Made by a program: the position numbers and the translations under genes | Shown here: positions 2,377 to 49,783 of the stretch, one piece after another | Layout: each line of letters starts with the position of its first letter | Numbering within the stretch: the stretch's first letter is position 1 | Notes under the pieces: model-generated | Database searches by the model: none | What the model was told of the DNA's origin: nothing | The model's input: the letters and a program-made list of their open reading frames with translations, nothing else | From: a virus | Lineage: Duplodnaviria; Heunggongvirae; Uroviricota; Caudoviricetes | Reading direction: 5' to 3' (one strand) | Virus record (IMG/VR): IMGVR_UViG_3300010002_000010 | Span: 27,949-91,948 of that record | DNA: 64,000 nucleotides

Positions 2377-2411
2377 ATAAATAGCATTATAATATGAGAG
2401 GAAGTAAAATT

Positions 2412-3401
2412 ATGGCAAAGAAACGTAACTCATTTTTTAACGAAGAAACCTATGCGATCGTAAATAAGAAATCAAAGGATATTGTAGAGGATTATAATCT
2501 CGAACTTAAATCAAAAAAGAAAGCGGAGAAAACTATCTATCAGTATATTGCTGATATTAAAATGTTCCTCTGTTATGTTCATGATAATTTTGATGACAAG
2601 TATCTATTGGATCTTAAGAAACGAGACTTCCGCCGGTTCTTCTTGGCTCTTCAAGATTCAGGAGCTTCGTCTGCACGGATCAACCGCGTCCAATGTTCGC
2701 TTCGGAACATCTTAGAATTTTGTATGGAAGACGATGACGAATACGAAGATTACGAAATCAATGTAATGAAATCCGTCAAAGGTTTGGTAAAAGAAGAAGT
2801 CCGCGAAATCCACTTCCTACCAAATGAAGATGTCGAATTGATCCTAGATTATTTGATTGAAAAACAAAAATACCAGCAAGCTTTATACCTGGCAATTAGC
2901 TATGAATCTGCAGGTCGCCGGAATGAAGTACACCAAGTTAAAAAAACGGACTTCCTAGAAAACAACCGAACCAATATTGTTCAAGGTAAACGCGGTAAAA
3001 AATTCTCATTGCTTTATTTTGGTCGATCAAAAGAAATTGCAAAACTGTATTTCGATCAACGCGGTGAGGATAATATTGATTCTCTTTGGGTTTCTGGTGA
3101 AGGTGAAGATCTTCGGCCTGCAAAATATGAAGCTCTTTATAACTGGGTTATCACATTCCGCCGGATCCTATTGCGTTTAACTGGAAAAGATATTGAGTTC
3201 AATCCCCACAGTTTACGGCATACAAGCCTCGAGAATTATTCTGATGGATCCCATTATGTATTAAAAGAATTGGGAAAAGACAAGTTCGATATTAATGTTC
3301 TTCGTCTGATTGCAAACCATTCGGACATCTCGACTACCGCAAATTATTTGAAAAATAAAGATGAAGAAGAACTTAATAACGCTTTTGGTTTTGGATCATA
3401 A
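2412..3401 (+). CDS. tyrosine site-specific recombinase (phage-integrase family); could be an integrase, a Xer-like resolvase or an SPbeta MrpR-like recombinase-fold regulator
   Basis: C-terminal HSLRHTS (HxxR) and a Tyr in STTANYL; start moved to the ATG at 2412, which has RBS gagaggaag (the track ORF begins at 2394). Confidence 0.8.
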   Translation: MAKKRNSFFNEETYAIVNKKSKDIVEDYNLELKSKKKAEKTIYQYIADIKMFLCYVHDNFDDKYLLDLKKRDFRRFFLALQDSGASSARINRVQCSLRNILEFCMEDDDEYEDYEINVMKSVKGLVKEEVREIHFLPNEDVELILDYLIEKQKYQQALYLAISYESAGRRNEVHQVKKTDFLENNRTNIVQGKRGKKFSLLYFGRSKEIAKLYFDQRGEDNIDSLWVSGEGEDLRPAKYEALYNWVITFRRILLRLTGKDIEFNPHSLRHTSLENYSDGSHYVLKELGKDKFDINVLRLIANHSDISTTANYLKNKDEEELNNAFGFGS

Positions 3402-5735: not shown

Positions 5736-6050
5736 TTATTTCATTTTCTTAATTTCTTCGAAGATCTCATGTTTCACGAAGAAGTTATAAATGTTGTCAT
5801 CCCATTTTGTATCTTCTTCAATTTTCATCCAGAAATTATCCAATCCATAATGAGTTATCATATCTTGTTCTTCAAACTCAGAAACAATATTCTCATTGAC
5901 AAGTTTCTGTACGTCTTCAAAAATTGGATTTTCCATTGGGATGTAATACAGATTATCATTTTTTGGAACGAGTGTTACAGATGTATCTGTGACACACACA
6001 AACGTTAAATTTTTTTCTACGAGATGTTGAAGATCTTGATTTGTTTTCAT
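5736..6050 (-). CDS. hypothetical protein (104 aa), paralog of 5311-5637
   Basis: Paralogy read directly from the N-terminal alignment. Confidence 0.6.
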   Translation of the reverse strand: MKTNQDLQHLVEKNLTFVCVTDTSVTLVPKNDNLYYIPMENPIFEDVQKLVNENIVSEFEEQDMITHYGLDNFWMKIEEDTKWDDNIYNFFVKHEIFEEIKKMK

Positions 6051-6089
6051 TTTAAAAGCCCCTTTGTTTTTTAATTACCTTACAATTTA

Positions 6090-6118
6090 ATTATACGTCA
6101 TATTCCCGCAGATGTAAA
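6090..6118 (-). promoter_or_regulatory. sigma-A-like promoter TTTACA-N17-TATAAT (minus strand)
   Basis: attata at 6090-6095 and tgtaaa at 6113-6118; terminator hairpin at 6121-6148. Confidence 0.65.
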
Positions 6119-6148
6119 TAAAAAAATCCCAATTAAGGGATTTTATTT

Positions 6149-6526
6149 TTACATGAATGTTGTATTGAAAATGTTTTCAAGTTCTTCGAATTGTGAATTA
6201 TTAATGAGATAATGTTTTTCTTCAAGATCTTTGAAACGTCCAACATACGGGATTGAGATTGTATTTGGATTGTTTAAGATGAAATGTCGCGAATCAAGAT
6301 ATGCTCGTTCGTTTACAAAACATAAGATCTCATTGTACGCAGGAATGACTTCAATGACTTTTGTTTTCTCATTGATTGTTACAAACGAATAATTGATATT
6401 ATCCATTTCTTCGTGCATAGAACTAATGATGTCATCCATATTCATTGTTTCTGTTTCTGTCATTTCTGAAAGATCTCGGATTTTCATAATCGATTCGTTC
6501 ATCTGTTCAATTGTCAAGTTTTTCAT
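6149..6526 (-). CDS. hypothetical protein (125 aa)
   Basis: Start moved to the ATG at 6526 (MKNLTIEQ...) with RBS aaaggacg; the track ORF is longer at its 5' end. Confidence 0.55.
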   Translation of the reverse strand: MKNLTIEQMNESIMKIRDLSEMTETETMNMDDIISSMHEEMDNINYSFVTINEKTKVIEVIPAYNEILCFVNERAYLDSRHFILNNPNTISIPYVGRFKDLEEKHYLINNSQFEELENIFNTTFM

Positions 6527-6657
6527 TTTTACACGTCCTTTGTTTTTTTTTGTTTTAATCTTCCTTACATATATAATTATAACATGATCTGCGGGATTTG
6601 TGTTGATTTTATTGAAAATAATTAAAAAAACTTTTTTATTTATTTTTCTAAAAACTA

Positions 6658-6686
6658 TGTACAAAGCCCGTAAATCTTAGTATAAT
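6658..6686 (+). promoter_or_regulatory. plus-strand early promoter TGTACAaagccc-N-TATAAT
   Basis: tgtaca at 6658-6663, 17-nt spacer beginning aagccc, tataat at 6681-6686. Confidence 0.6.
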
Positions 6687-6742
6687 AAATTATAGAGTTA
6701 ATTAACAGCGACTCTAAAAAACTTAGAAACGAGTTGAAAAAA

Positions 6743-6943
6743 ATGAACTTACATGATTTAAATGAGTATCGAAAACAGAAAATGCAGAATGAAAATTATC
6801 AGATTCAAGTTAGATCTTTATTGAATCCAGACGAACTAAAACAATTCAATAAAGCCATTGCACAAGGACAATACATGCAAGCCGTAAACATTGCGACTCC
6901 TGCAATCAACAAGAAGTTACAAGACACATACGGATTGAAATAA
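6743..6943 (+). CDS. hypothetical protein (~66 aa)
   Basis: ATG at 6743 (the track ORF begins at a TTG at 6734); terminator downstream. Confidence 0.5.
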   Translation: MNLHDLNEYRKQKMQNENYQIQVRSLLNPDELKQFNKAIAQGQYMQAVNIATPAINKKLQDTYGLK

Positions 6944-6944
6944 G

Positions 6945-6975
6945 ACAGATCGGCTTCGGCCGATCTTTTTATTTT
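6945..6975 (+). terminator. rho-independent terminator
   Basis: agatcggc-ttcg-gccgatct followed by ttttatttttt. Confidence 0.75.
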
Positions 6976-7612
6976 TTCCCGTTTTTTAAATCTTAAAGTG
7001 CCGTTTTGAAATTGTCAGAATATTCCGAATGTTCCGTTTTTAATGCCGGAAATTTTTTCAATATTCCGAATTTTCGGAATTGTCTGAATATTCATAAAAC
7101 TCGAAGTGCCGTGAATTATCAGAAAATTCTGAATATTCGATCTATTATAATTTTTAAAATATTCTAAATATTCCGACAATTTGAAAACTCGAAAGATTTA
7201 GAATTATCTAAATATTCGAAATTATCTGAACATTCGAAGTTGTCAGAATATTCCGATCATTGTAAATTGTCAGAATATTTCGAATTGATCGACAATTTGG
7301 AATTGTCAGAATATTCAGATCATTCAAAATATTCATAATTTTCCGCCGACGAACCACCGCAAATTATTTTAATATTCCGAATATTACGAATATTCCGACA
7401 ATTCTAAATAGATCGAATTTTCTGAATATTCCGAATAATTTGAATTTTCCGAATTGTCAGACTATTCAGAATTTATTGAATTAACGCCTATGAAAGAATA
7501 TTCCGACAATTCAATTTTTACAATAATCGAAATATTCCGAATATTTTGAAAATTCAAATTGATCGAAAATTCAGAATATTTGTAATATAAAATAACTATT
7601 TTAAAATGTGAA
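6976..7612. repeat. repeat array R1: about 20 copies of the GAATATTC-centred motif (full site approx TTGTCAGAATATTCTGACAA, half-site GAATATTCCGACAATTC) in both orientations
   Basis: Counted directly; contains the variant GTGCCGTGAATT and the GC island CCGCCGACGAACCACCG at 7343-7359. Confidence 0.9.
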
Positions 7613-7621
7613 ATAAAAAAA

Positions 7622-7648
7622 ATGGGATTCTTTCGAATCCCGAATGAT
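7622..7648 (-). terminator. rho-independent terminator for 7656-7907
   Basis: gggattc-tttcg-aatccc with a T-run on the minus strand. Confidence 0.7.
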
Positions 7649-7655
7649 TTGTTTC

Positions 7656-7907
7656 TTAAAGTAAGTTATTCAATTCTTCAACATGTTTTGAAACTCGATT
7701 TGCTTGAAGAATGAAAATTGTCAATCCTTGTGGACTCATTTCATTTTCATGAAACTTAATTACGAAATGATTTGAGATCGGATTGTGAGATAATGTCACT
7801 TCTGAAATCGGATTGTCAAAGTGAAAACGGCCAAACGAATATGTCGCATTTGCATATCCTAATTCTTCAAGTTTTGAAATTACGTTTTGTACTGTTTTGT
7901 AATTCAT
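7656..7907 (-). CDS. hypothetical protein (83 aa), possible helix-turn-helix DNA-binding protein
   Basis: RBS aaaggacg; the N-terminal KTVQNVISKLEELGYANAT segment looks like an HTH (weak). Confidence 0.5.
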   Translation of the reverse strand: MNYKTVQNVISKLEELGYANATYSFGRFHFDNPISEVTLSHNPISNHFVIKFHENEMSPQGLTIFILQANRVSKHVEELNNLL

Positions 7908-8026
7908 TTTTCAACGTCCTTTATTTTGTATTTAAGGTCTTTTGTTTGTCTCAACCTTATATATTAATTATACATCTAAAGCCCACAAAAGTACACAGTT
8001 TTTGGAAATTAAATTGTAAAACTTTT

Positions 8027-8160
8027 AGAAACAATTCTGACAATTTAATATGATCGTGTCAGAATATTCTGACAATTCAAAAAAACTTAATTGTCGGAAT
8101 TTTCAGAATATTAAAACAATGAAGCCGCAATTGTCAGAATTGTTCTAAAAAATAATACAA
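8027..8160. repeat. repeat array R2: about 4 copies of the GAATATTC motif, including the perfect palindrome GTCAGAATATTCTGAC
   Basis: Read directly. Confidence 0.85.
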
Positions 8161-8179
8161 ATTAATTTCCGTAAAACTG

Positions 8180-8208
8180 TGTACAAAGCCCATTTTAAAT
8201 GTTATAAT
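8180..8208 (+). promoter_or_regulatory. plus-strand early promoter TGTACAaagccc-N-TGtTATAAT
   Basis: tgtaca at 8180-8185, tataat at 8203-8208, 17-nt spacer. Confidence 0.65.
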
Positions 8209-8260
8209 ATATATAAGAGGTTAAGTAATTGATCTCAAAAACGAAAAGAGGATGATGAAA

Positions 8261-8434
8261 ATGTTACAAGAAACTGCAAAATGTTTACAAGAACTTTCAG
8301 AAAACGGATTTTACAAATTTGAAAACGAAATGTTCGATTTTGAAAATGTTGTTGAATTAGTAAATCCAATTCTCAAATCTTTGAAAGTTGATTTTGAAGT
8401 AAATAACGAAAAAGAAGAAATCAAAATTTTCTAA
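8261..8434 (+). CDS. hypothetical protein (57 aa)
   Basis: Third in-frame ATG chosen (aagagg RBS, 9-nt spacing); terminator follows at 8436-8465. Confidence 0.5.
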   Translation: MLQETAKCLQELSENGFYKFENEMFDFENVVELVNPILKSLKVDFEVNNEKEEIKIF

Positions 8435-8464
8435 AATGAAAGAGTCGAAAGACTCTTTTCATTT

Positions 8465-8905
8465 TGTTTTCAATTGTCAGACAATTCTGAAAATTCTGAA
8501 TCGATCATTGTTTGAATTTTTGGAATATTCAGACAATTCGAAATATTCAGGAAATTTAGAAAAGTCGTTAAATTCAGAATATTCAGATAATTCAGAATAG
8601 TCGTTAAATTCAGACAATTCAAAATGGCCGCAATATTCGAACAATTCAGAATATTCTGACAATTCGAAATGATCTAAATATTCAGACAATTCAAAATATT
8701 CTGACTAATTAGAATTGGCGCTTAATTCAGAATATTCCGACAATTACGACAATTATGAATATTCTAATAATTCGAAATATTCAGAATTTTCTGATAATTT
8801 GCGGTGGTTCGTCGGCGGGACAAATAGATCGAAGATTGAGAATATTCCGACAATTCAGAATATTGAAAAAATTCACGGCACATTACTCAGAATATTCTGA
8901 CAATT
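8465..8905. repeat. repeat array R3: about 13 copies of the GAATATTC motif; contains TAATTTGCGGTGGTTCGTCGGCGG at 8794-8818
   Basis: Counted directly; the repeat-derived ORFs 8477-8689 and 8715-8900 are artefacts. Confidence 0.9.
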
Positions 8906-8907
8906 CC

Positions 8908-8933
8908 AAAATATAAAAAATCCCAAAATGGGA
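8908..8933 (-). terminator. rho-independent terminator for 8934-9233
   Basis: atccca-aaa-tgggat with a T-run on the minus strand. Confidence 0.7.
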
Positions 8934-9233
8934 TTATTTAAAAGATCTTCTGTATTGAGAAGTGACTTTACGTCTGAGATTTGAGAGCCATGTAGAGTCC
9001 TGTGTCGCTCTGTATGACTCAATAGCATTGTCATAGTCATCTGTATTAACTTCAAAAAAGTAGTGATTTAATACATCTTCATCTGCGACGAGAGCTAGTT
9101 CTTTATGATAGATACTATTTTCTTTTTTGAAAAACCAGATCTCATTTTCTCGTTTTTCAATTTCGTAAAATGCTCCAGAAATGATTGTAGGATTTGTAAT
9201 TGTTTTCATAAGCATAACTATTTTTCGTGGCAT
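8934..9233 (-). CDS. hypothetical protein (~99 aa)
   Basis: Start set to the third ATG (9233), which has 9-nt spacing from aaaaagg. Confidence 0.5.
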   Translation of the reverse strand: MPRKIVMLMKTITNPTIISGAFYEIEKRENEIWFFKKENSIYHKELALVADEDVLNHYFFEVNTDDYDNAIESYRATQDSTWLSNLRRKVTSQYRRSFK

Positions 9234-9360
9234 TTTCATCATCCTTTTTTCTGTATTTTAGATCTGCATGAAACAGCTCATAAGAAAATTGTACTACAAA
9301 ATTTCCGCAATGTACATAGTTTTTAAATAAAAAAAAATAAAAAGAATTTCCATAAAACTA

Positions 9361-9389
9361 TGTACATTTGCGGGAATTACTGTTATAAT
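9361..9389 (+). promoter_or_regulatory. plus-strand early promoter TGTACA-N17-TGtTATAAT
   Basis: tgtaca at 9361-9366, tataat at 9384-9389. Confidence 0.65.
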
Positions 9390-9443
9390 AAATATATAAG
9401 GTTAAGCAATTAATCTTAAATAAAAACGAAATGAGTTGAGAAA

Positions 9444-9686
9444 ATGTTAGTCAAAGAAACAGAGCAAGCTCTGAAAGATCTAATGAAACTTGACAAAGTA
9501 GAATTATTAACAACGAAAGGAAAAATTCAAACTTGGTTCGTGTGTGAAAAAAACGGACAACAAGTCATTCTAAGAACGTTTCACTACATGAGCAATAACA
9601 AAAAGAACGTTTCGATCTGTGAACTAATGACACTTGAAAACGGAAAAACAATTTGGTACCCACGAAAAAAATTCATAAATGTATGA
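9444..9686 (+). CDS. hypothetical protein (80 aa)
   Basis: Conserved leader upstream; terminator at 9688-9716 (aaagagccgcgaggctcttt). Confidence 0.55.
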   Translation: MLVKETEQALKDLMKLDKVELLTTKGKIQTWFVCEKNGQQVILRTFHYMSNNKKNVSICELMTLENGKTIWYPRKKFINV

Positions 9687-9719
9687 AAATGAAAAAGAGC
9701 CGCGAGGCTCTTTTCATTT

Positions 9720-10035
9720 GTCATTTTCAATTGTCGGAATATTCTAAATAATTAGAAAGATCGAAAAATTGAATTGTCAGAATATTCTTTCACAAGCGCT
9801 AATTCACAATATTCTGACAATTCAGAATTGTCATTAAATTCAGAATATTTAGAAAATAAAAAATGTTTTTAGATCATTTTGAATATTCAGATAATTTAAA
9901 ATATTCAAAAGATTGAAAAAATTCGCGGCTCTTAAAACAGAACGTTTTGATAATTCTAAATATTCTGACAATTTCGAATATTCTGAAAATTACGAATATT
10001 CAGAAGATTGAAAAAATTCACAGCACGTTAGCTTT
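9720..10035. repeat. repeat array R4: about 9 copies of the GAATATTC motif
   Basis: Counted directly. Confidence 0.9.
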
Positions 10036-10099
10036 TAAAGATCTAGAAAAAACAACATTATAATAGATAAAAATAATTTAAAGAACTTTTAAAAAAGCT

Positions 10100-10128
10100 A
10101 GCACAAAGCCCGCAGAACGCGTTATAAT
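10100..10128 (+). promoter_or_regulatory. plus-strand early promoter AGCACAaagccc-N-TATAAT
   Basis: Read directly; 17-nt spacer. Confidence 0.55.
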
Positions 10129-10180
10129 ATTATTAAGAGATGAGTTATTGATCTCAAATAAAACGAAATGAGCTGATAAC

Positions 10181-10543
10181 ATGATTATCAACGACACAAA
10201 CACAGAAGCTTACAATCTTCAAAAAAACGCAAAAATGTATCTTTTAAAAGAAGATTCAAAAAAACTCGATCTTTCAAAAGCTTCATATGTTTTCGTAACA
10301 GATTCTCTTAAAGATTCAAAAAACATTAAGTCTGTTTCTTGGCTCGACGAAGATGATTCAGATGAAGTATATTTTCTTTCATACATGACAAATGAAGAAA
10401 TTGAAAATGAGCTTGTTGAAGTTGATTTTTACTTCTTAGAAAGAATTAGAAATTGTTACAGAAATACAAAACAATCTTATCTTCAAAATTACAAAGATGC
10501 TTGCAATGTCTGTGACTTAGAACTTGAAAAATTAACAAAGTGA
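10181..10543 (+). CDS. hypothetical protein (120 aa), paralog of 10685-11035
   Basis: Shared segments ...LSKASYVFV... and ...YQNYKD.C..C.LELEKLTK. Confidence 0.6.
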   Translation: MIINDTNTEAYNLQKNAKMYLLKEDSKKLDLSKASYVFVTDSLKDSKNIKSVSWLDEDDSDEVYFLSYMTNEEIENELVEVDFYFLERIRNCYRNTKQSYLQNYKDACNVCDLELEKLTK

Positions 10544-10684
10544 AATATTAAAAACAAGAGCTTTCGAGCTTTTGTTTTTTTTTATTTTTTTTAAAAATTT
10601 ATAACAAAAATCCCGCAAAACATGTTATAATGATATTAGAGATGAGCTGTTGATCTTAAAAAAAATGAAATGAGATGATTTAAA

Positions 10685-11035
10685 ATGAACTTTGAAAAAA
10701 ACACAGACGCTTCAAGATTAGTTGAGATTGCAGATATGTATCTTCTTCGAGAAGATTCAAAACAGATTGATCTTTCGAAAGCATCATACGTCTTCGTTTT
10801 AAAAGCTTTTGAACATTCAAAAGAAATCTATTGGATAGATCAAGATGATAATTTCAAAGTCGAATGGACGTGCTTAATGAAAAATGAAGATATTGAAAAA
10901 CAACTTGTAAAAGTTAGCTCAGGCTTTTTAGAAAAAGTTATTGCAATTTACAACAACAAAGAACAAACGTATTATCAAAATTATAAAGATGATTGTAAGC
11001 TCTGTGAACTAGAACTTGAAAAACTAACAAAATAA
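10685..11035 (+). CDS. hypothetical protein (116 aa), paralog of 10181-10543
   Basis: Tandem duplication that includes the promoter and leader; terminator at ~11041-11085. Confidence 0.6.
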   Translation: MNFEKNTDASRLVEIADMYLLREDSKQIDLSKASYVFVLKAFEHSKEIYWIDQDDNFKVEWTCLMKNEDIEKQLVKVSSGFLEKVIAIYNNKEQTYYQNYKDDCKLCELELEKLTK

Positions 11036-11639: not shown

Positions 11640-12101
11640 TTATTCGTTAACTTCTTCAATGTTTGTGATTTGGAAAGTTGCAAGGGCTTTTTTGTTACGT
11701 CCGCGAAGCAAGTACCAAAGAATGTCATTGCGGAATGTAGTTCCATGTTTTTCATTGTAATATTCCGCAAAATCTTTATTTGAGAAGAACTCTTTAGTTT
11801 CTCCGTCTTCAGTTGTAACACGAACCATTGAAGAGTTACGACGTCCTGGAGTGCTTGAAGTTTTTTGAGCTTGAGCTTCGCGGTTTAATTGAGCGTCTTG
11901 TTCGATTTGTTCAACGATTTCTGATTTTTCCCCAGTCATTTCTGTGTGTTGTAATTCAAGGATTGCAGAAACGAGTTGAGATTGTTTCATTTTCCATGCT
12001 CCGTGAATCTCATAGTTTTTGTCTTTGATGATCTGTTTAAGTTCCGCAACTTTCATTCCTTCGAGTTGAGTCGCTGTGTACGTTGTAGTTGTCTGTGTCA
12101 T
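11640..12101 (-). CDS. hypothetical protein (153 aa) with an N-terminal SAP/Rho-N-like helix pair
   Basis: LEGMKVAELKQIIKDKNYEIHGAWKMKQSQLVSAI resembles a SAP/Rho_N motif (weak). Confidence 0.5.
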   Translation of the reverse strand: MTQTTTTYTATQLEGMKVAELKQIIKDKNYEIHGAWKMKQSQLVSAILELQHTEMTGEKSEIVEQIEQDAQLNREAQAQKTSSTPGRRNSSMVRVTTEDGETKEFFSNKDFAEYYNEKHGTTFRNDILWYLLRGRNKKALATFQITNIEEVNE

Positions 12102-12317
12102 TTTAATTTCCTCCTAGTAGTTGGGTTTGTTTGATTTGTTATTACCTTATATACTTATTATAGGCCATTTTTAATGGGATGTACACTGTTTTATCCAAAT
12201 TCTTTTGTTTTTTTTAAAAAAACTTTTTTCTTTAATTTCCAAAAAACTAACACAGATCTATGGAAATAGTGTATAATAAAGAAGTAAGGTAATTCAAATT
12301 TAAGGAGCTGTTAGAAA

Positions 12318-26746: not shown

Positions 26747-27985
26747 TTATTCTTCATTGTACAGTTTGACTTTCTCGCCTTGTAGATAGATTTCTCCATT
26801 TTTCTGGCCAACAATTTTAATCGTGGTATGATTAATAGATGATCCGCGAGTATTTAAAACAAACTCGGCATCCCGTCGGTAACCATTCAAGATCAGTAAT
26901 GTTCCGCGCTCAAACCAGCTAGGATCCAAGACTTCTTTATCTTTTCCTTTTACCTGAACAACTTTTTTATCATAGTGGGCAAAAGTTCCTTTTGTATAAC
27001 GGATTGTGACAACACCATCTTGAGTTAATACAAAGATCAAGCTTTTGGTTTTGTCTTTATCTACTACTGTTCCCGCAATTGTGCTAATTTGATAGTTCGG
27101 GATTTCACGGCCACGCCATTTTTTCCATTCTCGAACAACAGGAACTTCCGGAAGCTCTTCAAATTTGGAAATATTATAAAGGCTTGACAGATCATAATAG
27201 TCCAGTTCATGTTTATGCTTATAATAAAGCAATGTTGACATTTCCCAAGCTTCAATTGATCCCGAGCATTCATCGATCCAAAATTGTTTACGGTTTTTGG
27301 CAGTAAGAATCTGAACAGTTTCAGGTTTTGCTAACCATTCTTTCAGTCGGCCAATACCTTTTTCATAGTATTTCTTGAATGATTTTTCATCAATTACAAG
27401 CTTTCCTTTTTCAAAAGTGTATTCGACATGATCTTTATATTTTGCAATAAATTCATCTTCGATTTCACGAGTCATTACTGCTTTTTTACCGACCGCTTTA
27501 ATTTTGAAATTATACAATTCCAATTCTGGTCCGTATTCTTCTTTATTAATATGATCGATTACATGCGGAAGATTTGCCATTGTCAATTTTGTTTTTGCTG
27601 GTACCGCAATCTTAACAAAATCAATCATTAGTTTTCTGCGGTCTGATTCAAATTCATCAAATGATCCTGACTTAATTAATGTTACAATTTTCTTATTTGA
27701 AATTCCAGATCCCTCAAATGACGTTTTTTCTAAGAAATTCTCAAAAGAAGTATAAGGACGATTAGCAATGACAGTTGCGACAACATCTTTCCCAAGCCCA
27801 ACAATTGGTTTCAATCCAAACAGGATCTTATTCTCTGATTCAAGTGGCGTAAATCCTGGACGAGATTTATTAATATCTGGCGGAAGAACTTCATCTTTAA
27901 TATTTCCGATCGCTTTTGCAATCTTACCATATTTTGTATTAGTTTCTTTTTCACCTGATAATCCTGAGTTTACGGATAAACAAGC
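26747..27985 (-). CDS. dnaE: DNA polymerase III alpha (DnaE)-like polymerase, exon 2 (C-terminal part: ILPPDIN-like motif, HhH, OB region); 5' boundary approximate
   Basis: VLPPDINKS and LKPIVGLGKDVVATVIANRPY align with DnaE fingers/HhH segments; continues the 29046-31538 frame across the intron. Confidence 0.75.
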   Translation of the reverse strand, partial: ACLSVNSGLSGEKETNTKYGKIAKAIGNIKDEVLPPDINKSRPGFTPLESENKILFGLKPIVGLGKDVVATVIANRPYTSFENFLEKTSFEGSGISNKKIVTLIKSGSFDEFESDRRKLMIDFVKIAVPAKTKLTMANLPHVIDHINKEEYGPELELYNFKIKAVGKKAVMTREIEDEFIAKYKDHVEYTFEKGKLVIDEKSFKKYYEKGIGRLKEWLAKPETVQILTAKNRKQFWIDECSGSIEAWEMSTLLYYKHKHELDYYDLSSLYNISKFEELPEVPVVREWKKWRGREIPNYQISTIAGTVVDKDKTKSLIFVLTQDGVVTIRYTKGTFAHYDKKVVQVKGKDKEVLDPSWFERGTLLILNGYRRDAEFVLNTRGSSINHTTIKIVGQKNGEIYLQGEKVKLYNEE

Positions 27986-29045
27986 TGTTTTCCAAAATAC
28001 AGATCCAAAGAGAAGGCAGATATTCATCTCAATCATCAAGATCAAAGTATAGCCCGCAATGTGTGGAAGTGAGAATGCATCATGTGATCCAAATTTTTCA
28101 ATCTGGCATGGACTATATCTTTACAATGCGATCCAATTATTTAAATTTGAAATAGGGCGCCCGTCGAAAGCTATTTGATCTTTGAATATTTACTTCAATA
28201 TGATTCACCCGCTTATTTAACTCTTTCGCGGCTTCATATATATCTGTAAACTCTTTGATTAAAGATCCATCAATGTTAAAATACAAAATTGGTTTTCCAA
28301 CTAATTCTTGTTTGCGGTTTTTAATTCCGCCCACTTTTGCATTTATAGGACATTGTTTTTTACGCTTTTCGCTGGTTCGATTAATCAGTCCATTTTCTGA
28401 AGCATGTTTCATATTGCCCGCGTTATCTGTCCATTCTAAATTTGTATAATGGTTATTTTGTTTATTACCATCTAAATGGTTAACCACATTAAATTTATTA
28501 GGATCCGGGTTTTTAACAAACGTTTCACATACCAGCCGATGAATATATTTCTCAATTGGTCCTAATCTTGTTCTAAAATATCCATTAGGTAATAGAGTTT
28601 GCTTCTCAATTCGTTCTGGCCGTATATACTTTCTTCCGTCTGTTCCAATATGAATATGATTTAATCGTTTTACTTCACCGTTTTCCGAAACTAAAAAATT
28701 TGAATCATCTGCTGTTGTTTTCCATTCCATAAGAAACTCTCCTTATAAATGGATCGCATTGTACTTTGCTCTTCGAATAACGTACCAATAGTTATCCTAC
28801 TCTACTAACTTCCACAATTTCTGTGTGCTTTCGATAGTCTCTACACCTTCAATTAAGCTAGGCACGGTATTATCGGCTACCCATATTTCAGGGTTTAGAT
28901 TCTCTTAGTCAGCGGCTTCGTCTTTTGGTAAATCCTGTCATTTCCTTGTTAGGCTTGGACAGAAGTCTTATTCAACTGATACCGTTAGCATGATCTTAAG
29001 ATCATACACCCCTGGTTGGGTTCACAAAGTTAACGGGCAAGCTAT
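27986..29045 (-). mobile_element. group I intron (approximate bounds) in the polymerase gene, carrying an HNH homing endonuclease ORF
   Basis: ~1.06 kb interruption between aligned DnaE segments (...SYVWTYCLEPQF | ...ACLSVNSG...LPPDIN); ~310-nt GC-richer non-coding block at 28731-29045. Confidence 0.7.
28137..28730 (-). CDS. HNH homing endonuclease (intron-encoded)
   Basis: HNH-type motif ...VNHLDGNKQNNHYTNLEW...; RBS aaggagag. Confidence 0.75.
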   Translation of the reverse strand: MEWKTTADDSNFLVSENGEVKRLNHIHIGTDGRKYIRPERIEKQTLLPNGYFRTRLGPIEKYIHRLVCETFVKNPDPNKFNVVNHLDGNKQNNHYTNLEWTDNAGNMKHASENGLINRTSEKRKKQCPINAKVGGIKNRKQELVGKPILYFNIDGSLIKEFTDIYEAAKELNKRVNHIEVNIQRSNSFRRAPYFKFK

Positions 29046-31538
29046 TCACCCAAATTGTGGTTCTAGGCAATAAGTCCAAACATAGCTTAAGAATAAAACA
29101 CTTGTCCCAAGATCTTTTCCCTGTTCAAAGAATAATTCTTTTTGCTCCGCAATGAGCTCTTTATTCTGTTTAGCTACGGCTTTCCGGAATTTATTGGCTT
29201 GAGTTAATGTGAACCCTGAGATTTTTTGATCCATCGAGATCTCCATAAGACCTTCTTGTGTATCGCAGATTCCGTATCGATCATTTAGGTGGTTAATTAG
29301 AATATTTTTTTCGTCTTCAGTTAAATTATTTTCGTCCATTTCTTTATACCAAAGAGAAATATCATTCTTAAATTCAACATATTTATCGATCGGTTGTTTT
29401 CCTGAAGTTGTTAATCGCATCAATGAGTTACCCGCAGATAATTCATCAAAAGATTGCGGTTTAATTTTGTTCAGTGCACTAATACCAACATTGGTTTCAA
29501 ATTGGAAAGCATTGAATACCTCACCTTTTGCAAGCATTTCGTACATTTGCGGATCTTGCATCTCTAAAACATCTGGATGAAGATATTTTTCATAAGTCTC
29601 CCGCAGAGTACCTTGCCATTCAATTTTACCGTATTCTTCCAATAAAGCCATAGCTTCACGGATCCGCCCAAGTGCATCAACTGAAAGGAAATCTAATTTT
29701 AAACCGCCCAATGCTTCTGTATCTTTTGCATCGAATTGAGTAACCGCTAATCCTTTTGTTGTTTGCATTAATACATTTTGTTCGATATATCCGTTAGGGA
29801 AAATTACAATTCCTGAAGCGTGCTGAGATCGACCAGAAATTAATCCTTCAATTGAAAGCAAAGCATCTCGCAATCCTTCATGACTATCAACCTCATTAAT
29901 AAACTCTTGAACAGGACGGCGTTTTTCTTCTTCGTTTCCAAAGAGACAATCTCGAATTGGCCAGTTTTCTGCTTTTTCTTTTGGAATTAGGTTTGCAATA
30001 TTCATTGCAATATCTTTATCAATATCTAATCCACGGCAAGCAGTTAATACAGATGATCGGGATTTTTCTGTTGTAAATGTTCCCATGTTCAAAACATTTT
30101 CTTCGCCAAACTCTTTTTTAATAAGTTCAACAATTTCCAATCGTTTTGATCCTTCAGTATCAATGTCAATATCTGGCAACTCTACCCGCTCTTTTGACAA
30201 GAAACGCCAGTGAGGAAGTTTATATTTAATTGGGTTGATTTGAACAATATCTAACAAATAGTTTGTGTAATAACAACTTGCTGATCCACGAGAAACTCCG
30301 ACCAGCGAAACTTTCCACATAATATCAACTACTTGCTTTGTTAAGGTAAAGTAAGAAGATAGCGGTTGGTTAAGTGCTTTGGAAATATGCCAGATCTCAT
30401 TTAGCTCGGTATTAATACGATCAAGGTTTTCATGATTGTATTCTTCGTTCCGTCGAACCATTCCCTCTTCAATTAGCTTCAAATAATAACGGTCAACAAG
30501 GTTTGGGCTGTTTTTAAATTCACCAATATAGTTGTATGCAATGGTAAACTTATCAAATGAAGTTGCTTCTGTAAAGTCTGCTGGAATCTTCGTATTTGGA
30601 ACTTTAATTGGCTGATCCAAACTATATGATTCAATTTTGCTTTGGATCTCAATTGTATTTTTTGCCAACACCCGAAGTAGATTATCTGGGAAAAATTCAA
30701 GCAGTTCATCGTATGACATTACATAAGTTGTTCCATAGAATTGATCGACTTCTCGCTCTCCTTCTGAGGCTTGCAAATATGCGCGGTGTTGATCTTGGAA
30801 ACCTTTATTCAAATAATGGGCATCTGTGGCGACAATACATTTCACATTGTACACTTCTGATAATTTCAAAAGCATGCGGTTTGCCGTGTGTTGATCTTTT
30901 TGGTAAGATGGTTGAAGCTCAAAATAGAAATCAGTTCCAAACAAGCCTTTCATCAAAGTAACAAAATCGTGCATTTTCTTTTTTAATTCCTGCGATGGGT
31001 TTTCATCATAAGCAATTAAATATTGCGGTAGTTCTCCACCAACACAAGCAGTAGTTGCGATAAGATCTCCTGAATATTCTTGCATAATTTCATAAAGATC
31101 ATCTTTATATGTTGGAACACGGAACATACCGTTTTGGTAAAATCCATTTTTCCAAGCTTTTGATGATAGGATTTTAAGAGCTTTATAACCGCGTTCATTT
31201 TTAGCAATTAAAATGAAATGAGGATATTTAATTTTAGTGCCGTTTTCGAGGCTATCTTCTACTTTATCACGGTCAAGAAGATAGATCTCATTACCAAGTC
31301 CAATTGAATAATCATCAGGTAATTTACCTGCTTCTTTTTGCTTTTTAACATATTTTAATAATTTTACATGATTTGACAAAGCTTCATGATCGGTGCAAAC
31401 AAACCCCTTCAAACCAATTTCTGCGGTATAATCAACTAACATTGTGATCTTGTTAATCGCATCACGTAGACGGAAATTGCTTGCATCAGAGTGAGAATGT
31501 GTTAAGAAAATATTTTTATATTCTGGCAGTGTATTCAT
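29046..31538 (-). CDS. dnaE: DNA polymerase III alpha (DnaE)-like polymerase, exon 1 (PHP domain plus palm and fingers)
   Basis: PHP motifs HSHSDAS...CTDHE; C-terminal ...LSYVWTYCLEPQF aligns with DnaE ...VSYQTAWLKAHYPAEF; RBS aggagga. Confidence 0.8.
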   Translation of the reverse strand: MNTLPEYKNIFLTHSHSDASNFRLRDAINKITMLVDYTAEIGLKGFVCTDHEALSNHVKLLKYVKKQKEAGKLPDDYSIGLGNEIYLLDRDKVEDSLENGTKIKYPHFILIAKNERGYKALKILSSKAWKNGFYQNGMFRVPTYKDDLYEIMQEYSGDLIATTACVGGELPQYLIAYDENPSQELKKKMHDFVTLMKGLFGTDFYFELQPSYQKDQHTANRMLLKLSEVYNVKCIVATDAHYLNKGFQDQHRAYLQASEGEREVDQFYGTTYVMSYDELLEFFPDNLLRVLAKNTIEIQSKIESYSLDQPIKVPNTKIPADFTEATSFDKFTIAYNYIGEFKNSPNLVDRYYLKLIEEGMVRRNEEYNHENLDRINTELNEIWHISKALNQPLSSYFTLTKQVVDIMWKVSLVGVSRGSASCYYTNYLLDIVQINPIKYKLPHWRFLSKERVELPDIDIDTEGSKRLEIVELIKKEFGEENVLNMGTFTTEKSRSSVLTACRGLDIDKDIAMNIANLIPKEKAENWPIRDCLFGNEEEKRRPVQEFINEVDSHEGLRDALLSIEGLISGRSQHASGIVIFPNGYIEQNVLMQTTKGLAVTQFDAKDTEALGGLKLDFLSVDALGRIREAMALLEEYGKIEWQGTLRETYEKYLHPDVLEMQDPQMYEMLAKGEVFNAFQFETNVGISALNKIKPQSFDELSAGNSLMRLTTSGKQPIDKYVEFKNDISLWYKEMDENNLTEDEKNILINHLNDRYGICDTQEGLMEISMDQKISGFTLTQANKFRKAVAKQNKELIAEQKELFFEQGKDLGTSVLFLSYVWTYCLEPQFG

Positions 31539-46486: not shown

Positions 46487-47419
46487 TTAAGAACTACATG
46501 CTAAACAGTTATCTTCATATTTTTTATCCCAAGTACGAGTGTAGTAAGATGTCTTAATACCTTTTTTCCAAGCTCGAACATGAAGCGAAAGCAACTTTTT
46601 AGCCGATGTTCCTTGTGGTACATAGAAATTAAATGATGATGCTTGATCGACAAAAATCTGACGAGCCGCGTTATGGTCAATAGCAAATTCATGGGCAAGA
46701 CCTTCATCAGCTTTTTTCATTTTCATAGTTGGTTTGTAGTAATGCCATGTTACAGGGTTTAGGTTTGGCACAATCAATGGAAGCATGAAATCTTTTTTGC
46801 GCTCCATGAAGATTACATCAAAGATTGGATCAATTCCGGCGGTAGATCCAGCAATTACCGAAGTGGCTCCGGTTGGCGCAGGTGATCGAAGATAACCATT
46901 CCGCATACAGCGTGAAGCCATTTTTTGAACAATCTCCCATAAAGGGTGATTCAAATGACCATCTGCTTTTCGTTTTTCAAACCATTCACCAGTCTGCCAT
47001 TCAGATCCTTCAAATACTTTATAAGATCCTTTTTCTTTTCCAAGAATTGATGAGTTCATGATTGTATAAAGCATGATTTCTTCCTCAAGTTCCTGAATGT
47101 ATTTTGTGGCTTCTTCTGAATCCCAATCGAGTTGTTTATCAGCAAGCAAAGCCGCGATTCCTTGTTCTCCAGCACCAACAGCTCGATATTTTTTATTGGT
47201 AAACTCTGCTTGTGGAACAGGTGCTGTTTGTAATGAAATTACATTATCCAACGCTCGCATTTGAATTGCGATAATACGATCAAGAACGTCATCACGGACA
47301 ACATTATTCAGAACCAACGATGAAAGGTTACAGGTAACTAGATCACCAATTGATTTAGTAATGATTACTTTTTCATTAGCCCAATCAATCTCTTGTTGTT
47401 CAACATTTGATGGGGACAT
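46487..47419 (-). CDS. nrdE: ribonucleotide reductase alpha subunit NrdE, exon 2 (C-terminal part; true 5' splice boundary lies a few codons inside the frame, near ...QEIDW)
   Basis: ...EIDW...LVTCNLSSLVL matches the post-SNLC-x-EI region and the second catalytic Cys loop. Confidence 0.8.
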   Translation of the reverse strand: MSPSNVEQQEIDWANEKVIITKSIGDLVTCNLSSLVLNNVVRDDVLDRIIAIQMRALDNVISLQTAPVPQAEFTNKKYRAVGAGEQGIAALLADKQLDWDSEEATKYIQELEEEIMLYTIMNSSILGKEKGSYKVFEGSEWQTGEWFEKRKADGHLNHPLWEIVQKMASRCMRNGYLRSPAPTGATSVIAGSTAGIDPIFDVIFMERKKDFMLPLIVPNLNPVTWHYYKPTMKMKKADEGLAHEFAIDHNAARQIFVDQASSFNFYVPQGTSAKKLLSLHVRAWKKGIKTSYYTRTWDKKYEDNCLACSS

Positions 47420-48361
47420 GTTCTGCCCAATTTCAGTCCTGCATATTCCCTCTAGCTCGCTATGCTAGAAGCGTCACTCTTGGTGACTGCTATATGTTGC
47501 CATATAGAGTAGACTATATCATGATCTTAAATTAAGATCCCTTGCTTTTCCATTTAAGAGGTTTTACACTACCTTATTACGGTAACACCTCACCCCAATA
47601 GCTTGGGCTGTACTCTACTCCCTTAACCTTTCGGCGGTTTCGATAGTCGTTCGGCATTTATTAATCAATCTTATCAAGCATATTTCCAATCAGGATATTT
47701 TTCACTTTTTAACTTATACAGAACGCCACTCTTACTTTTATATCCTAACTTCTTCGCGGCTTCAGTAATACTTTCATATTCAATACTATTAATAATACAT
47801 TTTTTGGAATTTGCTTCTTTTACGCTGTTAATCATTTTTTGTGATTTTGGTTTACCATATTGATGGTTTCCAGATCCAGACATTTGATCCACTCTCATTT
47901 GTCTAATTCCTTCTTTATTTGGATGACCTGTAAAAACATCACCACCAATTGAAGAGAGTTTAATATTATAGAAGTCTTTTGAATTTACGGCATCGAACAT
48001 TAAAATATAATATTCTTCAACTTCTCTTAACTCTTTTTCATTATCACATTCATCAATAATGATCTTGTAAAAGTTTTCTTTCCCATATTTATTGATTGCT
48101 CTTTTTAAATAAACTCCGCTTCCTAAATACTTTTCCCATGAGTTTATTCTTGAATAAACACATTTTCCAACATATTTTTTACCAGTAAGTTTATTAATTG
48201 TGATATAAACAAAACCATATTTCAAGTTTTTATTCTCCATTCTTAAATGCCAATAAAAGAATGATAAGATTGATTAAATTTAGCACGGGATTGTCCTCAT
48301 GGGATATTCCCCGTTTAACAAGGTTTTTCGATAAGCTTTTCAGCTTAAAGGTGCTAAGAAA
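47420..48361 (-). mobile_element. group I intron (approximate bounds) in nrdE, carrying a GIY-YIG endonuclease ORF
   Basis: Exon 1 ends ...YSSNLC followed by a stop; the obligatory xEI continuation is found ~940 nt downstream; non-coding blocks flank the GIY-YIG ORF. Confidence 0.75.
47674..48240 (-). CDS. GIY-YIG homing endonuclease (intron-encoded)
   Basis: YGFVYITINKLTGKKYVGK (GIY...YVG motif); 188 aa. Confidence 0.8.
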   Translation of the reverse strand: MENKNLKYGFVYITINKLTGKKYVGKCVYSRINSWEKYLGSGVYLKRAINKYGKENFYKIIIDECDNEKELREVEEYYILMFDAVNSKDFYNIKLSSIGGDVFTGHPNKEGIRQMRVDQMSGSGNHQYGKPKSQKMINSVKEANSKKCIINSIEYESITEAAKKLGYKSKSGVLYKLKSEKYPDWKYA

Positions 48362-49783
48362 TTAACACAGGTTAGATGAGTAAATCATACCGGCATGTTT
48401 ATTTGGGTTATTACGGTTTACTGTATCGCGGTAGAACATATATGGTGTTCCTGTTTCAAGCTGAGAAATCTCAAACTTTTTAACAAGATCCAAAGCGTTT
48501 ACACGTGTTTTTGCTAATTCTTGGTTATCAATACATAATTGGTAATGATAAGTCCAAGCATGATCTGTTGGATTTGGTTTTTCTTTCTCACCAAGAAGCT
48601 TATTATCGTAAAAGTCTTCTAAATGGAATCCCATAACATCTTTGATTTCATGCGGATCAAACAAATACCAGTCGCCTCGTTTTTCAATTTGACGCATAAA
48701 TTCATCTGGAATTGTGATCCCTGTGAATAATTCATGAGCCCGTTCTGCCTTGTCACCGGTATTTAATCGCAACTCAAGGAAACGAACAATATCTTTATGC
48801 CAAATATCAAGATAAACAGCGATCGCACCAGGACGAACACCTAATTGATCGACTGAAACGGCTGTGTTATTTAATTGGCGGATCCAAGGAATTACACCTG
48901 ATCCAACACCATGGAACCCTTTAATCGAAGATCCTCGACCGCGAACTTTACCAAGATAGACACCAAGTCCAGCACCATTTTTACTGAAAGTTGCAATATC
49001 TGTATTGTCATCATAGATCCCGCGAAGTGAATCAGGTGTTGTAACAACGTAACAACTCGATAAACCCCCATCAATTCGTCCCGCATTTGATAATGTTGGT
49101 GTCGCCAGTGTGAGATAAAGATTTGATAATGCAAAGTACAATTCTTTGACATGATCCATTCGATCTTTTTTCTCTTCCATCATTAATGTCAAAGCCGCGA
49201 TCATAAACCGTTCTTGCGGTAGCTCATAAATCGATTTATCAAAATCTTTTACCAAATACCGATTTGCAAGTGCTTGGATTCCAGCAAAATCAAATAGTTC
49301 ATCTTTTGATGGATCAATCATTTGACCAGCAAGGATTAGATCTTCCCGGGTATAATTTTTTAATAATTCAGGTGTGTAAAGACGTTTATCTGTCAACGTT
49401 TTAATGAGGCCATAAAAATCACCATACATTAGTTTTGAATCATAAAAACGGTTTTTAGAGGCTCGCTTGTATAATTCTTGTTGAAAAATATATCGTGCCA
49501 TTTTTGTCCAGTTTACATTCAGTAATGTTTCGCTAGAAACTACACCATCTTCGTTTTTGATCCGATTAGCCAGAACAGTAGATTCTTGAATTAAAATCTT
49601 GCGGATGTCTTTGGCTTCAATATCCGGTCGTTGAGAAATTAAGCGGATTACTTTTTCAGCATATTCGCTTTTTGTTTCTTCTGGTAGTTTAACTTTTTCA
49701 AATCCTTTTCCAATAAAATCCATTAAACGTGAAGCGCTAAATTCCATTGATCGTTGCCCGTTATCTTTTAAAACCGTTGTCAT
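48362..49783 (-). CDS. nrdE: ribonucleotide reductase alpha subunit NrdE, exon 1 (N-terminal 473 aa ending SSNLC)
   Basis: Class I RNR alpha architecture ending at the active-site SNLC; RBS aaaggagag. Confidence 0.85.
   Translation of the reverse strand: MTTVLKDNGQRSMEFSASRLMDFIGKGFEKVKLPEETKSEYAEKVIRLISQRPDIEAKDIRKILIQESTVLANRIKNEDGVVSSETLLNVNWTKMARYIFQQELYKRASKNRFYDSKLMYGDFYGLIKTLTDKRLYTPELLKNYTREDLILAGQMIDPSKDELFDFAGIQALANRYLVKDFDKSIYELPQERFMIAALTLMMEEKKDRMDHVKELYFALSNLYLTLATPTLSNAGRIDGGLSSCYVVTTPDSLRGIYDDNTDIATFSKNGAGLGVYLGKVRGRGSSIKGFHGVGSGVIPWIRQLNNTAVSVDQLGVRPGAIAVYLDIWHKDIVRFLELRLNTGDKAERAHELFTGITIPDEFMRQIEKRGDWYLFDPHEIKDVMGFHLEDFYDNKLLGEKEKPNPTDHAWTYHYQLCIDNQELAKTRVNALDLVKKFEISQLETGTPYMFYRDTVNRNNPNKHAGMIYSSNLC

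Follow-up and report, generated by a model that had tools for sequence, protein, structure and literature searches.

A phage accessory island built of 9-bp repeats that resemble overlapping CodY boxes

Four repeat arrays in a 9-bp register

The DNA analysed here, hereafter the window, is a stretch of 64,000 nucleotides (64 kb) from IMG/VR record IMGVR_UViG_3300010002_000010 (positions 27,949 to 91,948), part of a large siphovirus-type phage genome of the Caudoviricetes. Between positions 6976 and 10035 it carries four AT-rich intergenic tracts (GC content 0.25–0.30), and these tracts, or arrays, are the subject of the current study. They were first noticed in an original prediction made from the sequence without database searches, and its four tract boundaries proved sound. 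We propose, with a probability of roughly 60%, that in these tracts binding sites for CodY, a global regulator of the host, overlap to form chains. The arrays, the genes embedded among them and the terminators that border them are as follows.

6976 to 7612, minus strand: array 1, about 40 units, mostly inverted (GAATTGTC arms), between convergent terminators; in-register runs at 7060-7095, 7211-7255, 7310-7345 and 7371-7469 (11 units)
8027 to 8160, no strand assigned: array 2, about 6 units in a short cluster that includes an 18-bp perfect palindrome
8465 to 8905, plus strand: array 3, with a 30-unit run at 8524-8793, between convergent terminators
9720 to 10035, plus strand: array 4, about 20 units, with runs at 9781-9843, 9882-9926 and 9950-10021
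7656 to 7907, minus strand: embedded ORFan gene (83 aa) between arrays 1 and 2
8252 to 8434, plus strand: embedded ORFan gene (60 aa) between arrays 2 and 3
8934 to 9242, minus strand: embedded ORFan gene (102 aa) right of array 3
9444 to 9686, plus strand: embedded ORFan gene (80 aa) left of array 4
6947 to 6966, plus strand: intrinsic terminator of gene 6734-6943, left border of array 1
7624 to 7641, minus strand: intrinsic terminator of gene 7656-7907, right border of array 1
8438 to 8459, plus strand: intrinsic terminator of gene 8252-8434, directly before array 3
8919 to 8935, minus strand: intrinsic terminator of gene 8934-9242, right border of array 3
9693 to 9714, plus strand: intrinsic terminator of gene 9444-9686, directly before array 4

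The repeated motif is concentrated in this region, as originally claimed. The exact core GAATATTC occurs 27 times in the window, where 2.7 copies are expected, and 21 of these lie within 7018-10001. The longer 17-mer GAATATTCNGACAATTC, allowing two mismatches, has 34 matches against 0.13 expected, 33 of them within 7009-9992.

The tracts had been described as irregular 16-20-bp sites at 10-20-bp spacing; they are in fact laid out in a tandem register of 9 bp. The unit is degenerate and reads A-A(C)-W-W-T-T-C-N-G, with a consensus also written AAWWTT-CNG. In tracts 1, 3 and 4, base autocorrelation is about 0.5 at lags 9, 18, 27 and 36 as opposed to 0.2–0.3 at other lags, a lag-9 series seen nowhere else in the window. 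Tandem Repeats Finder (TRF) reports periods of 9, 18, 27, 36 and 45 in the tracts, the start-to-start distances between copies in a repeat search are nearly all multiples of 9, and the same holds for 69 of the 87 inter-unit gaps (those of up to 45 bp). The longest run in a single register comprises 30 consecutive units (8524-8793, 270 bp) with no frame-breaking indel. The units have diverged to only about 61% identity, and the register is kept nonetheless. Conservation within the unit is position-specific rather than uniform (A1, T5, T6 and C7), being highest at A1 (0.85–0.99) and T6 (0.93–0.96, a value partly raised by the anchoring of the unit alignment). The inner two positions of the hexamer are W, and AATATT is a palindromic compromise between a left arm AATTTT and a right arm AAAATT.

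How many sites the arrays hold depends on the definition. The earlier estimate was about 45–50 copies; the counts obtained here are 33 17-mers, 24, 50 or 79 CodY-like 15-mers in the four tracts (at most two, three or four mismatches, respectively; see below) and about 88–99 nine-bp units. An Rfam search of the tracts returned a single match, to a plant microRNA, which was below threshold and due to the inverted units; megablast of positions 6000-11000 against phages returned none. The original prediction was right to set aside a CRISPR array: such arrays consist of identical 25-40-bp repeats with unique spacers of similar length, and the units here are 9 bp long, contiguous and degenerate (about 61% identity).

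Arrays 1 and 3 account for 1,078 of the 1,528 bp of array DNA (about 70%), and both occupy promoter-less gaps between convergent terminators. Array 1 is inverted with respect to arrays 3 and 4 and is downstream of two genes, 7656-7907 on the minus strand and 6734-6943 on the plus strand. The statement that the tracts follow terminators of plus-strand genes is correct for arrays 1, 3 and 4 and incomplete for array 1, which follows a minus-strand gene as well. In array 3, units often alternate between AATATTCNG and ACAATTCNR. Array 4 has the terminator of 9444-9686 on one side and the promoter of 10181-10543 on the other. Array 2 is weakly periodic, with a lag-9 autocorrelation of only 0.43, and occupies the only classical operator-like position, namely between the divergent promoters of 7656-7907 (minus) and 8252-8434 (plus). 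It contains the previously reported perfect palindrome TGTCAGAATATTCTGACA at 8057-8074 (centre 8065/8066).

Fit to CodY boxes and recurrence in other phages

CodY is a global repressor of low-GC Gram-positive bacteria, a winged-helix protein that senses branched-chain amino acids as well as GTP. A 15-bp segment spanning two array units reads AAWWTTCNGAAWWTT and matches the CodY box AATTTTCWGAAAATT, and successive array 15-mers at the 9-bp offset form CodY-like boxes that overlap by 6 nt. The window contains 67 15-mers with at most three mismatches to AATTTTCWGAAAATT, 50 of which are within 7010-10009. With up to four mismatches, a level attained by 0.18% of background 15-mers, array 1 has 34 such boxes and array 3 has 24. 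The mean number of mismatches to the CodY box is 4.3 for in-register 15-mers versus 10.0 in the rest of the window, and 34 of the window's 35 box pairs (at most four mismatches) at a 9-bp offset are in the array region.

Three characteristics of CodY operators can be compared with the arrays. First, the box is a 15-nt pseudo-palindrome near AATTTTCWGAAAATT that typically has up to 4–5 mismatches, and the array boxes are in this range. Known operators are no better matched: the boxes of hutP have 2 and 4 mismatches, those of ureA 5, 2 and 3, and those of braB 3 and 3. Second, CodY operators typically consist of two 15-nt boxes with a 6-nt overlap, that is, a 9-bp offset, on which two dimers sit cooperatively via cross-dimer contacts; inserting 1–2 bp into the shared half-site abolishes the cooperativity, and extra dimers can join on either side, with three shown on ureA and higher oligomers proposed (PMC10415144). 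The arrays have the same overlap and offset, kept over 30 units without an indel. Third, CodY makes base-specific contacts only with the A:T and T:A pairs at the outer ends of a hexamer; in the shared half-site both dimers contact these pairs, which hardly vary in CodY logos; and the DNA-binding surface is reported to be conserved between species (PMC10415144). In the arrays, A1 and T6 supply this near-invariant first A and last T.

The arms most favoured in the arrays, GACAATT and GAATATT, depart from the consensus, yet both are present in the strong footprinted site II of Bacillus subtilis braB, which reads TATTATCTGACAATT followed by AATTGACAGAATATT (PMC4608796). Predicted boxes of the Streptococcus salivarius CodY regulon include AATATTCTGACAATT (thrC), AATTGTCAGAATTTT (ilvE and lysC) and AATTTTCAGACAATT (codY) (PMC5966866). 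The thrC box is an exact array 15-mer, and among the papers that were searched for this 15-mer, PMC5966866 alone contained AATATTCTGACAATT. With exact arms of the arrays present in footprinted or regulon CodY sites, we read them, on sequence grounds, as ordinary CodY arms. The broad idea of high-copy sites for a dimeric DNA-binding protein, as first put forward, would hold. Among the candidates named at that time, a sink or decoy for a host regulator such as CodY is the best supported, although the 9-bp register of overlapping boxes had been missed.

Other phages have such arrays too. Searching IMG/VR with the 17-mer gave about 90 loci; in-register clusters are present at roughly 20, and chains of 8–14 boxes occur in five further contigs (L021, L019, L082, L069 and L090). 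The window comes from JGI metagenome 3300010003, and a denser array than that of the window was seen in a 128-kb viral contig from the same metagenome (L091, IMGVR_UViG_3300010003_000011, 100662-101798); the 1.1 kb of this contig that was examined holds 29 boxes (at most three mismatches), including a chain of 16. Among cultured phages, blastn of the tracts retrieved 36 records with motif clusters, of which 32 are Bacillus phages, mostly Bastillevirinae (Bastille, CAM003, Hoody T, Evoli, Anthony, Belinda and Goe5 among them). Most clusters in Bastillevirinae lie within the non-coding first 1 kb of the record, presumed to be the start of the terminal repeat, and in phage P59 they fall inside an annotated 13.3-kb terminal repeat. 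Bacillus phage Anthony (L214, 1-1100) and more than 30 other Bastillevirinae records have about a dozen copies of AATATTCTGACAATT there, mostly in one orientation; these first-kilobase copies are not described in the Bastillevirinae literature examined. The remaining cultured carriers are Sextaecvirus phages of Mammaliicoccus sciuri (F1 and the PG-2021 set), with the cluster in a divergent intergenic region, and one record labelled as an Arcanobacterium phage.

Apart from this last record, the relatives of the window phage and the other array carriers infect Bacillus and Mammaliicoccus and, probably, hosts of the Listeria, Enterococcus and Clostridium type. Bacteria of all these kinds have CodY. 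In three metagenomic carriers tested, the closest proteins were from Enterococcus/Listeria, Geobacillus/Bacillus and Clostridium/Anoxybacillus phages; a fourth, L010, had no cultured-phage match. The contexts of the arrays vary, and include the record start, positions upstream of terminase genes, a position over a −35 element and its spacer, and gaps between terminators. In several small Firmicutes-type metagenomic phages, arrays lie immediately beside genes for the small or large terminase subunit (L021 901-1250, L069 951-1500, L090 3201-3750, L019 101-650 and L057 4000-7000). Such neighbourhoods usually hold cos or pac sites and late promoters, and a link between these particular arrays and late-gene control or packaging is possible.

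No protein family was common to the array neighbourhoods across the lineages compared. What the window has in common with F1 is limited to replication genes and the recombinase; with Anthony, of which the first 56 kb were compared, it is limited to dihydrofolate reductase (DHFR), ThyX and a peptidase. One DNA motif in unrelated phages, combined with the lack of a common candidate binder, points to a conserved host factor.

Having proposed CodY as this factor, we would note several observations that weigh against it. The assignment is a fit to a degenerate, AT-rich consensus in DNA that is itself AT-rich. The arrays favour AATATTCTGACAATT, which is asymmetric and has two mismatches, over the ideal consensus; and in alternating stretches every second 15-mer is poor (6–8 mismatches), so that a continuous CodY filament is not guaranteed. 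No arrays were found in Geobacillus phage GR1, the closest cultured relative, which implies that they are dispensable for this phage type. Arcanobacterium phage TPWB06 (PQ358086.1, about 84813-84943) has the Mammaliicoccus-Sextaecvirus array with an actinobacterial host listed; to our knowledge CodY is not expected in Actinobacteria, so either the host label is doubtful or the record is a counter-example. The host of the window phage we infer, from relatives only, to be a member of the Bacillales: its DNA polymerase has 62% identity to the GR1 enzyme and about 52% to the polymerases of Sextaecvirus phages that infect Mammaliicoccus and Staphylococcus, and its endolysin is similar to those of Bacillus and Listeria phages. 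A scan of bacterial genomes with the three-unit pattern ATTCNGANWATTCNGANWATTC was too loose to inform on host range; among the matches listed, nearly all were isolated chance occurrences or repeats of 9-bp period in GC-rich contigs from outside the Firmicutes, the latter taken to be coding repeats. Finally, any titration arithmetic hinges on the copy numbers of both CodY and the phage.

Genomic setting and alternative explanations

The arrays sit in a 10-kb accessory region that extends from a tyrosine recombinase gene to the end of the replication operon. It is made of small single-gene units, each with its own promoter and terminator, and has 23 terminator-like sites where 3.5 are expected. 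The window as a whole codes for DNA polymerase III alpha, a type II topoisomerase made of two subunits, a helicase of the DnaB type, a RecJ-like exonuclease, ribonucleotide reductase and a sigma factor, together with many enzymes of nucleotide metabolism. A search for related loci with the GyrA-like protein found no relatives. Further elements of the island are listed here.

8801 to 8819, plus strand: GC island GCGGTGGTTCGTCGGCGGG / GCGGTGGTTCGTCGGCGG in array 3, with an inverted copy at 7343-7360 (minus strand) in array 1
8863-8881 (plus), 9913-9931 (plus), 10008-10026 (plus) and 7043-7061 (minus): second motif TTGAAAAAATTCACGGCAC, near the promoter-distal ends of arrays
6648-6738 (plus), 7903-8005 (minus), 8170-8256 (plus), 9238-9326 (minus), 9351-9448 (plus), 10090-10185 (plus) and 12097-12195 (minus): promoters of the shared type

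The minority motifs mentioned in the original prediction are thus present. The GC island belongs to an inverted duplication of about 139 nt common to arrays 1 and 3 (7343-7481 and 8680-8818). The second motif has four matches where 0.05 are expected, all inside arrays; shorter GTGCCGT copies occur at about 6999 and 7106, and GTGCCGTGAATT lies at 7106-7117 with its complement at 8870-8881. The motif is a possible second conserved site. In the unrelated contigs L069 and L090, too, arrays are bordered by GC-rich islets, AGTGCCACGGCGC being an example.

Seven small units share the promoter AAAACTnTGTACA-N17-(TG)nTATAAT, with a −35 element TGTACA in place of TTGACA, and most of them also share a similar 5' leader of about 45 nt (AAGGTT..AAT..GATCT..AAA). 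The promoter may represent an early class of this phage, or be recognised by the phage sigma factor or some other regulator. Two adjacent ORFan genes, 10181-10543 (plus) and 10685-11035 (plus), each having a terminator of its own, are paralogues that share 52.6% identity over 116 aa. Two of the larger genes appear interrupted. The DNA polymerase III alpha gene (26747-31538, minus) appears split in two open reading frames (ORFs), 29046-31538 and 26747-28045, with a free-standing HNH/NUMOD4 endonuclease gene (28137-28730) between them, as opposed to a single polymerase gene in GR1 and F1. The gene for the large subunit of ribonucleotide reductase (46487-49783, minus) is likewise split, into 48362-49783 and 46487-47419, by an endonuclease-like ORF (47674-48240), and phage F1 is organised alike.

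The tyrosine recombinase (2394-3401, plus), located beside lysis genes, has the full catalytic set R, K, HxxR, H and Y. These residues were read directly from the sequence; a sequence search of the PDB gave no match. The protein is 53% identical to the F1 recombinase, has an equivalent in GR1, and may act as an integrase or as a concatemer/dimer resolvase.

Could the arrays instead serve a protein encoded by the phage, as a master-regulator array or a partition site? The island would offer candidates, as its four embedded ORFans have a common promoter type and could encode a DNA binder that escapes recognition, and arrays 1, 3 and 4 each take the orientation of the gene upstream. The product of 7656-7907 had been named as a candidate, being a small helix-turn-helix-like protein; its 83 residues show neither a detectable helix-turn-helix nor a family match. 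Pfam identified no DNA-binding family in the four embedded genes or their neighbours, PHROGs gave no match for the three embedded genes scanned, and no relatives of the two searched in IMG/VR (7656-7907 and 8934-9242) were found. The motif is also present in phages that have none of these proteins in common with the window phage, which speaks against a phage master regulator. The recombinase, which had been compared to MrpR and its SPBRE sites, keeps its catalytic residues, unlike MrpR; most array units are away from promoters, and GR1, in which no array was found, does have an equivalent of the recombinase. As for a parS-like centromere, no partition NTPase domain was detected in roughly 50 larger window ORFs, no gene of ParA, ParM or TubZ type was found, the actin-like gene of GR1 is absent at the syntenic position, and a plasmid search returned no similar arrays. 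We consider a phage-encoded binder unlikely.

Nor do we think it likely that the arrays bind another conserved host protein of similar AT-rich dyad specificity, the likeness to CodY being partial mimicry or coincidence. The asymmetric 15-mer AATATTCTGACAATT that the arrays prefer is found unchanged in unrelated phages, so the optimum of the true binder could differ from AATTTTCWGAAAATT, and a host factor would still be required given that no phage protein is common to the lineages. Against this, the exact arms are present in footprinted or regulon CodY sites, and we can name no other Firmicutes regulator whose 15-bp sites tile at a 9-bp offset. Candidates compared were ScoC (AATAnTATT), Spo0A, TnrA/GlnR, Fur, ArgR (ARG box) and Rex; all fail on spacing or sequence. 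The TnrA/GlnR site, for instance, is TGTNA-N7-TNACA with 17-bp spacing, and the arrays have N8.

A role as an iteron-type replication origin, or as packaging or terminus signals, appears very improbable. The tracts are AT-rich and repetitive like iteron origins, the Bastillevirinae clusters lie in the first 1 kb of the record and several small metagenomic phages have arrays beside terminase genes. On the other hand, DnaA boxes are absent in and near the tracts and their number in the window is at chance; the neighbours are ORFans, with no adjoining gene for a replication initiator; replication genes begin only from about 13 kb on; and the four separate blocks lie 8–30 kb from the helicase, polymerase and other replication genes. 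No terminase gene was present among the window ORFs scanned, and synteny with GR1 places it tens of kilobases away. Unrelated replication or packaging machineries are, in addition, unlikely to share one recognition sequence.

Least credible is a non-functional AT-rich minisatellite born of slippage and duplication: arrays 1 and 3 share an inverted duplicated segment, and the higher-order TRF periods are typical of unequal crossing-over, but units of about 61% identity hold a 270-bp run without a frame-breaking indel, their conservation is position-specific, and the motif is kept across unrelated phage lineages.

A promoter array was also considered and rejected. A −35-like CTGACA is present, but inspection found no −10-like element 16–18 bp on within the 9/18-bp period, and a promoter scan of the arrays gave only weak 9-of-12 matches.

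Possible role and relation to known systems

If the tracts are chains of CodY sites, each AAWWTT-CNG unit would be one shared half-site and each 15-bp segment at the 9-bp offset one CodY box, with neighbouring dimers making the cross-dimer contacts known from the 24-nt double site. Active CodY, bound to branched-chain amino acids together with GTP, would nucleate on the better boxes and spread cooperatively along each run, polymerising over up to 270 bp. With roughly 80–100 dimer positions per phage genome, the 3-kb island could become a CodY-coated domain in nutrient-rich cells. Replication of the phage would then turn the arrays into a high-capacity sink, which at tens or hundreds of genome copies could rival the cellular CodY pool; free CodY would fall and the host regulon for amino-acid supply and transport would be derepressed. 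The coating might also block read-through between convergent units (roadblocking by CodY is known in B. subtilis), and the four embedded small genes might come under nutritional control, especially via array 2.

Since arrays 1 and 3 lie between convergent terminators and have no promoter, classical repression is not expected to be their main role. Titration by a sink, or a CodY-coated roadblock domain, fits better than classical operator control; both are favoured. In either case, the phage probably soaks up or listens to the CodY of its host.

A bolder and more tentative proposal is that the arrays constitute a replicating 'CodY sponge' used by Firmicutes phages. A filament would form on the arrays and rising copy number would strip the cell of free CodY, switching on the starvation and amino-acid-supply regulon; alternatively, the accessory island would stay silent until the host starves. 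Such a sponge would have been reached by convergence in Bastillevirinae (near the presumed start of the terminal repeat), in large Sextaecvirus-like siphoviruses and in small temperate phages.

In Bacillus, Staphylococcus, Listeria, Clostridioides and streptococci, CodY is central in linking nutrient status to metabolism, sporulation and virulence. Infection could therefore, if the proposal is correct, rewire the CodY regulon without any phage protein, as a host-takeover device made of DNA only. Long CodY filaments, modelled in structural work for no more than three dimers, would have a natural template in the arrays, and the proposal could account for the start of Bastillevirinae records, a kilobase without genes that is nevertheless conserved. 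The arrays may matter for phage therapy or biocontrol of pathogens with CodY-controlled virulence. The same clusters are found in cultured, widely used phages, namely Bastille, CAM003 and Goe5 of the B. cereus group and F1 of Mammaliicoccus, which makes these ideas directly testable.

Our literature searches found no report of CodY sites, or of long in-register arrays, in phage genomes. The use of host regulator sites by phages and the decoy concept are already known, and CodY arrays in phages appear to be new, no report having been found. Among known systems, chromosomal CodY operators (hutP, ureA, braB and the crystallised 24-nt double site) are the closest, having the same 15-nt box and 6-nt overlap, similar mismatch levels, the GACAATT and GAATATT arms and the conserved outer A and T of the shared hexamer. 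They differ in scale and position: two or three boxes at promoters or in genes, as opposed to about 80 boxes within 1.5 kb and runs that reach 30 units, mostly between convergent terminators.

Spo0A boxes and parS sites in phi29-type phages are cases in which phages use sites of host regulators, single or few, at promoters. Similarly, CtrA boxes in phages of Alphaproteobacteria place sites for a host master regulator in a phage genome and tune infection to host physiology, with single or few promoter sites and a different regulator instead of the long in-register arrays of the window (PMC9437464). SPBRE, the 15-bp element bound by MrpR in prophage SPbeta, likewise recurs between the genes of a Bacillus phage; it differs in being present as about ten single promoter sites and in being bound by a phage-encoded, catalytically dead repressor of recombinase fold (PMC10516654). 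In the window the recombinase keeps its catalytic residues, and the sites form tandem arrays that also occur in phages without such a recombinase in the parts examined. With regard to titration, the datA site of Escherichia coli plays this part for DnaA. Transcription-factor decoy sites (PMC8599769) resemble the proposed sink in being clusters outside promoters that buffer or lower the free amount of a DNA-binding protein; they belong to the cell's own genome, whereas the decoy proposed here would be borne by a virus and amplified through its replication.

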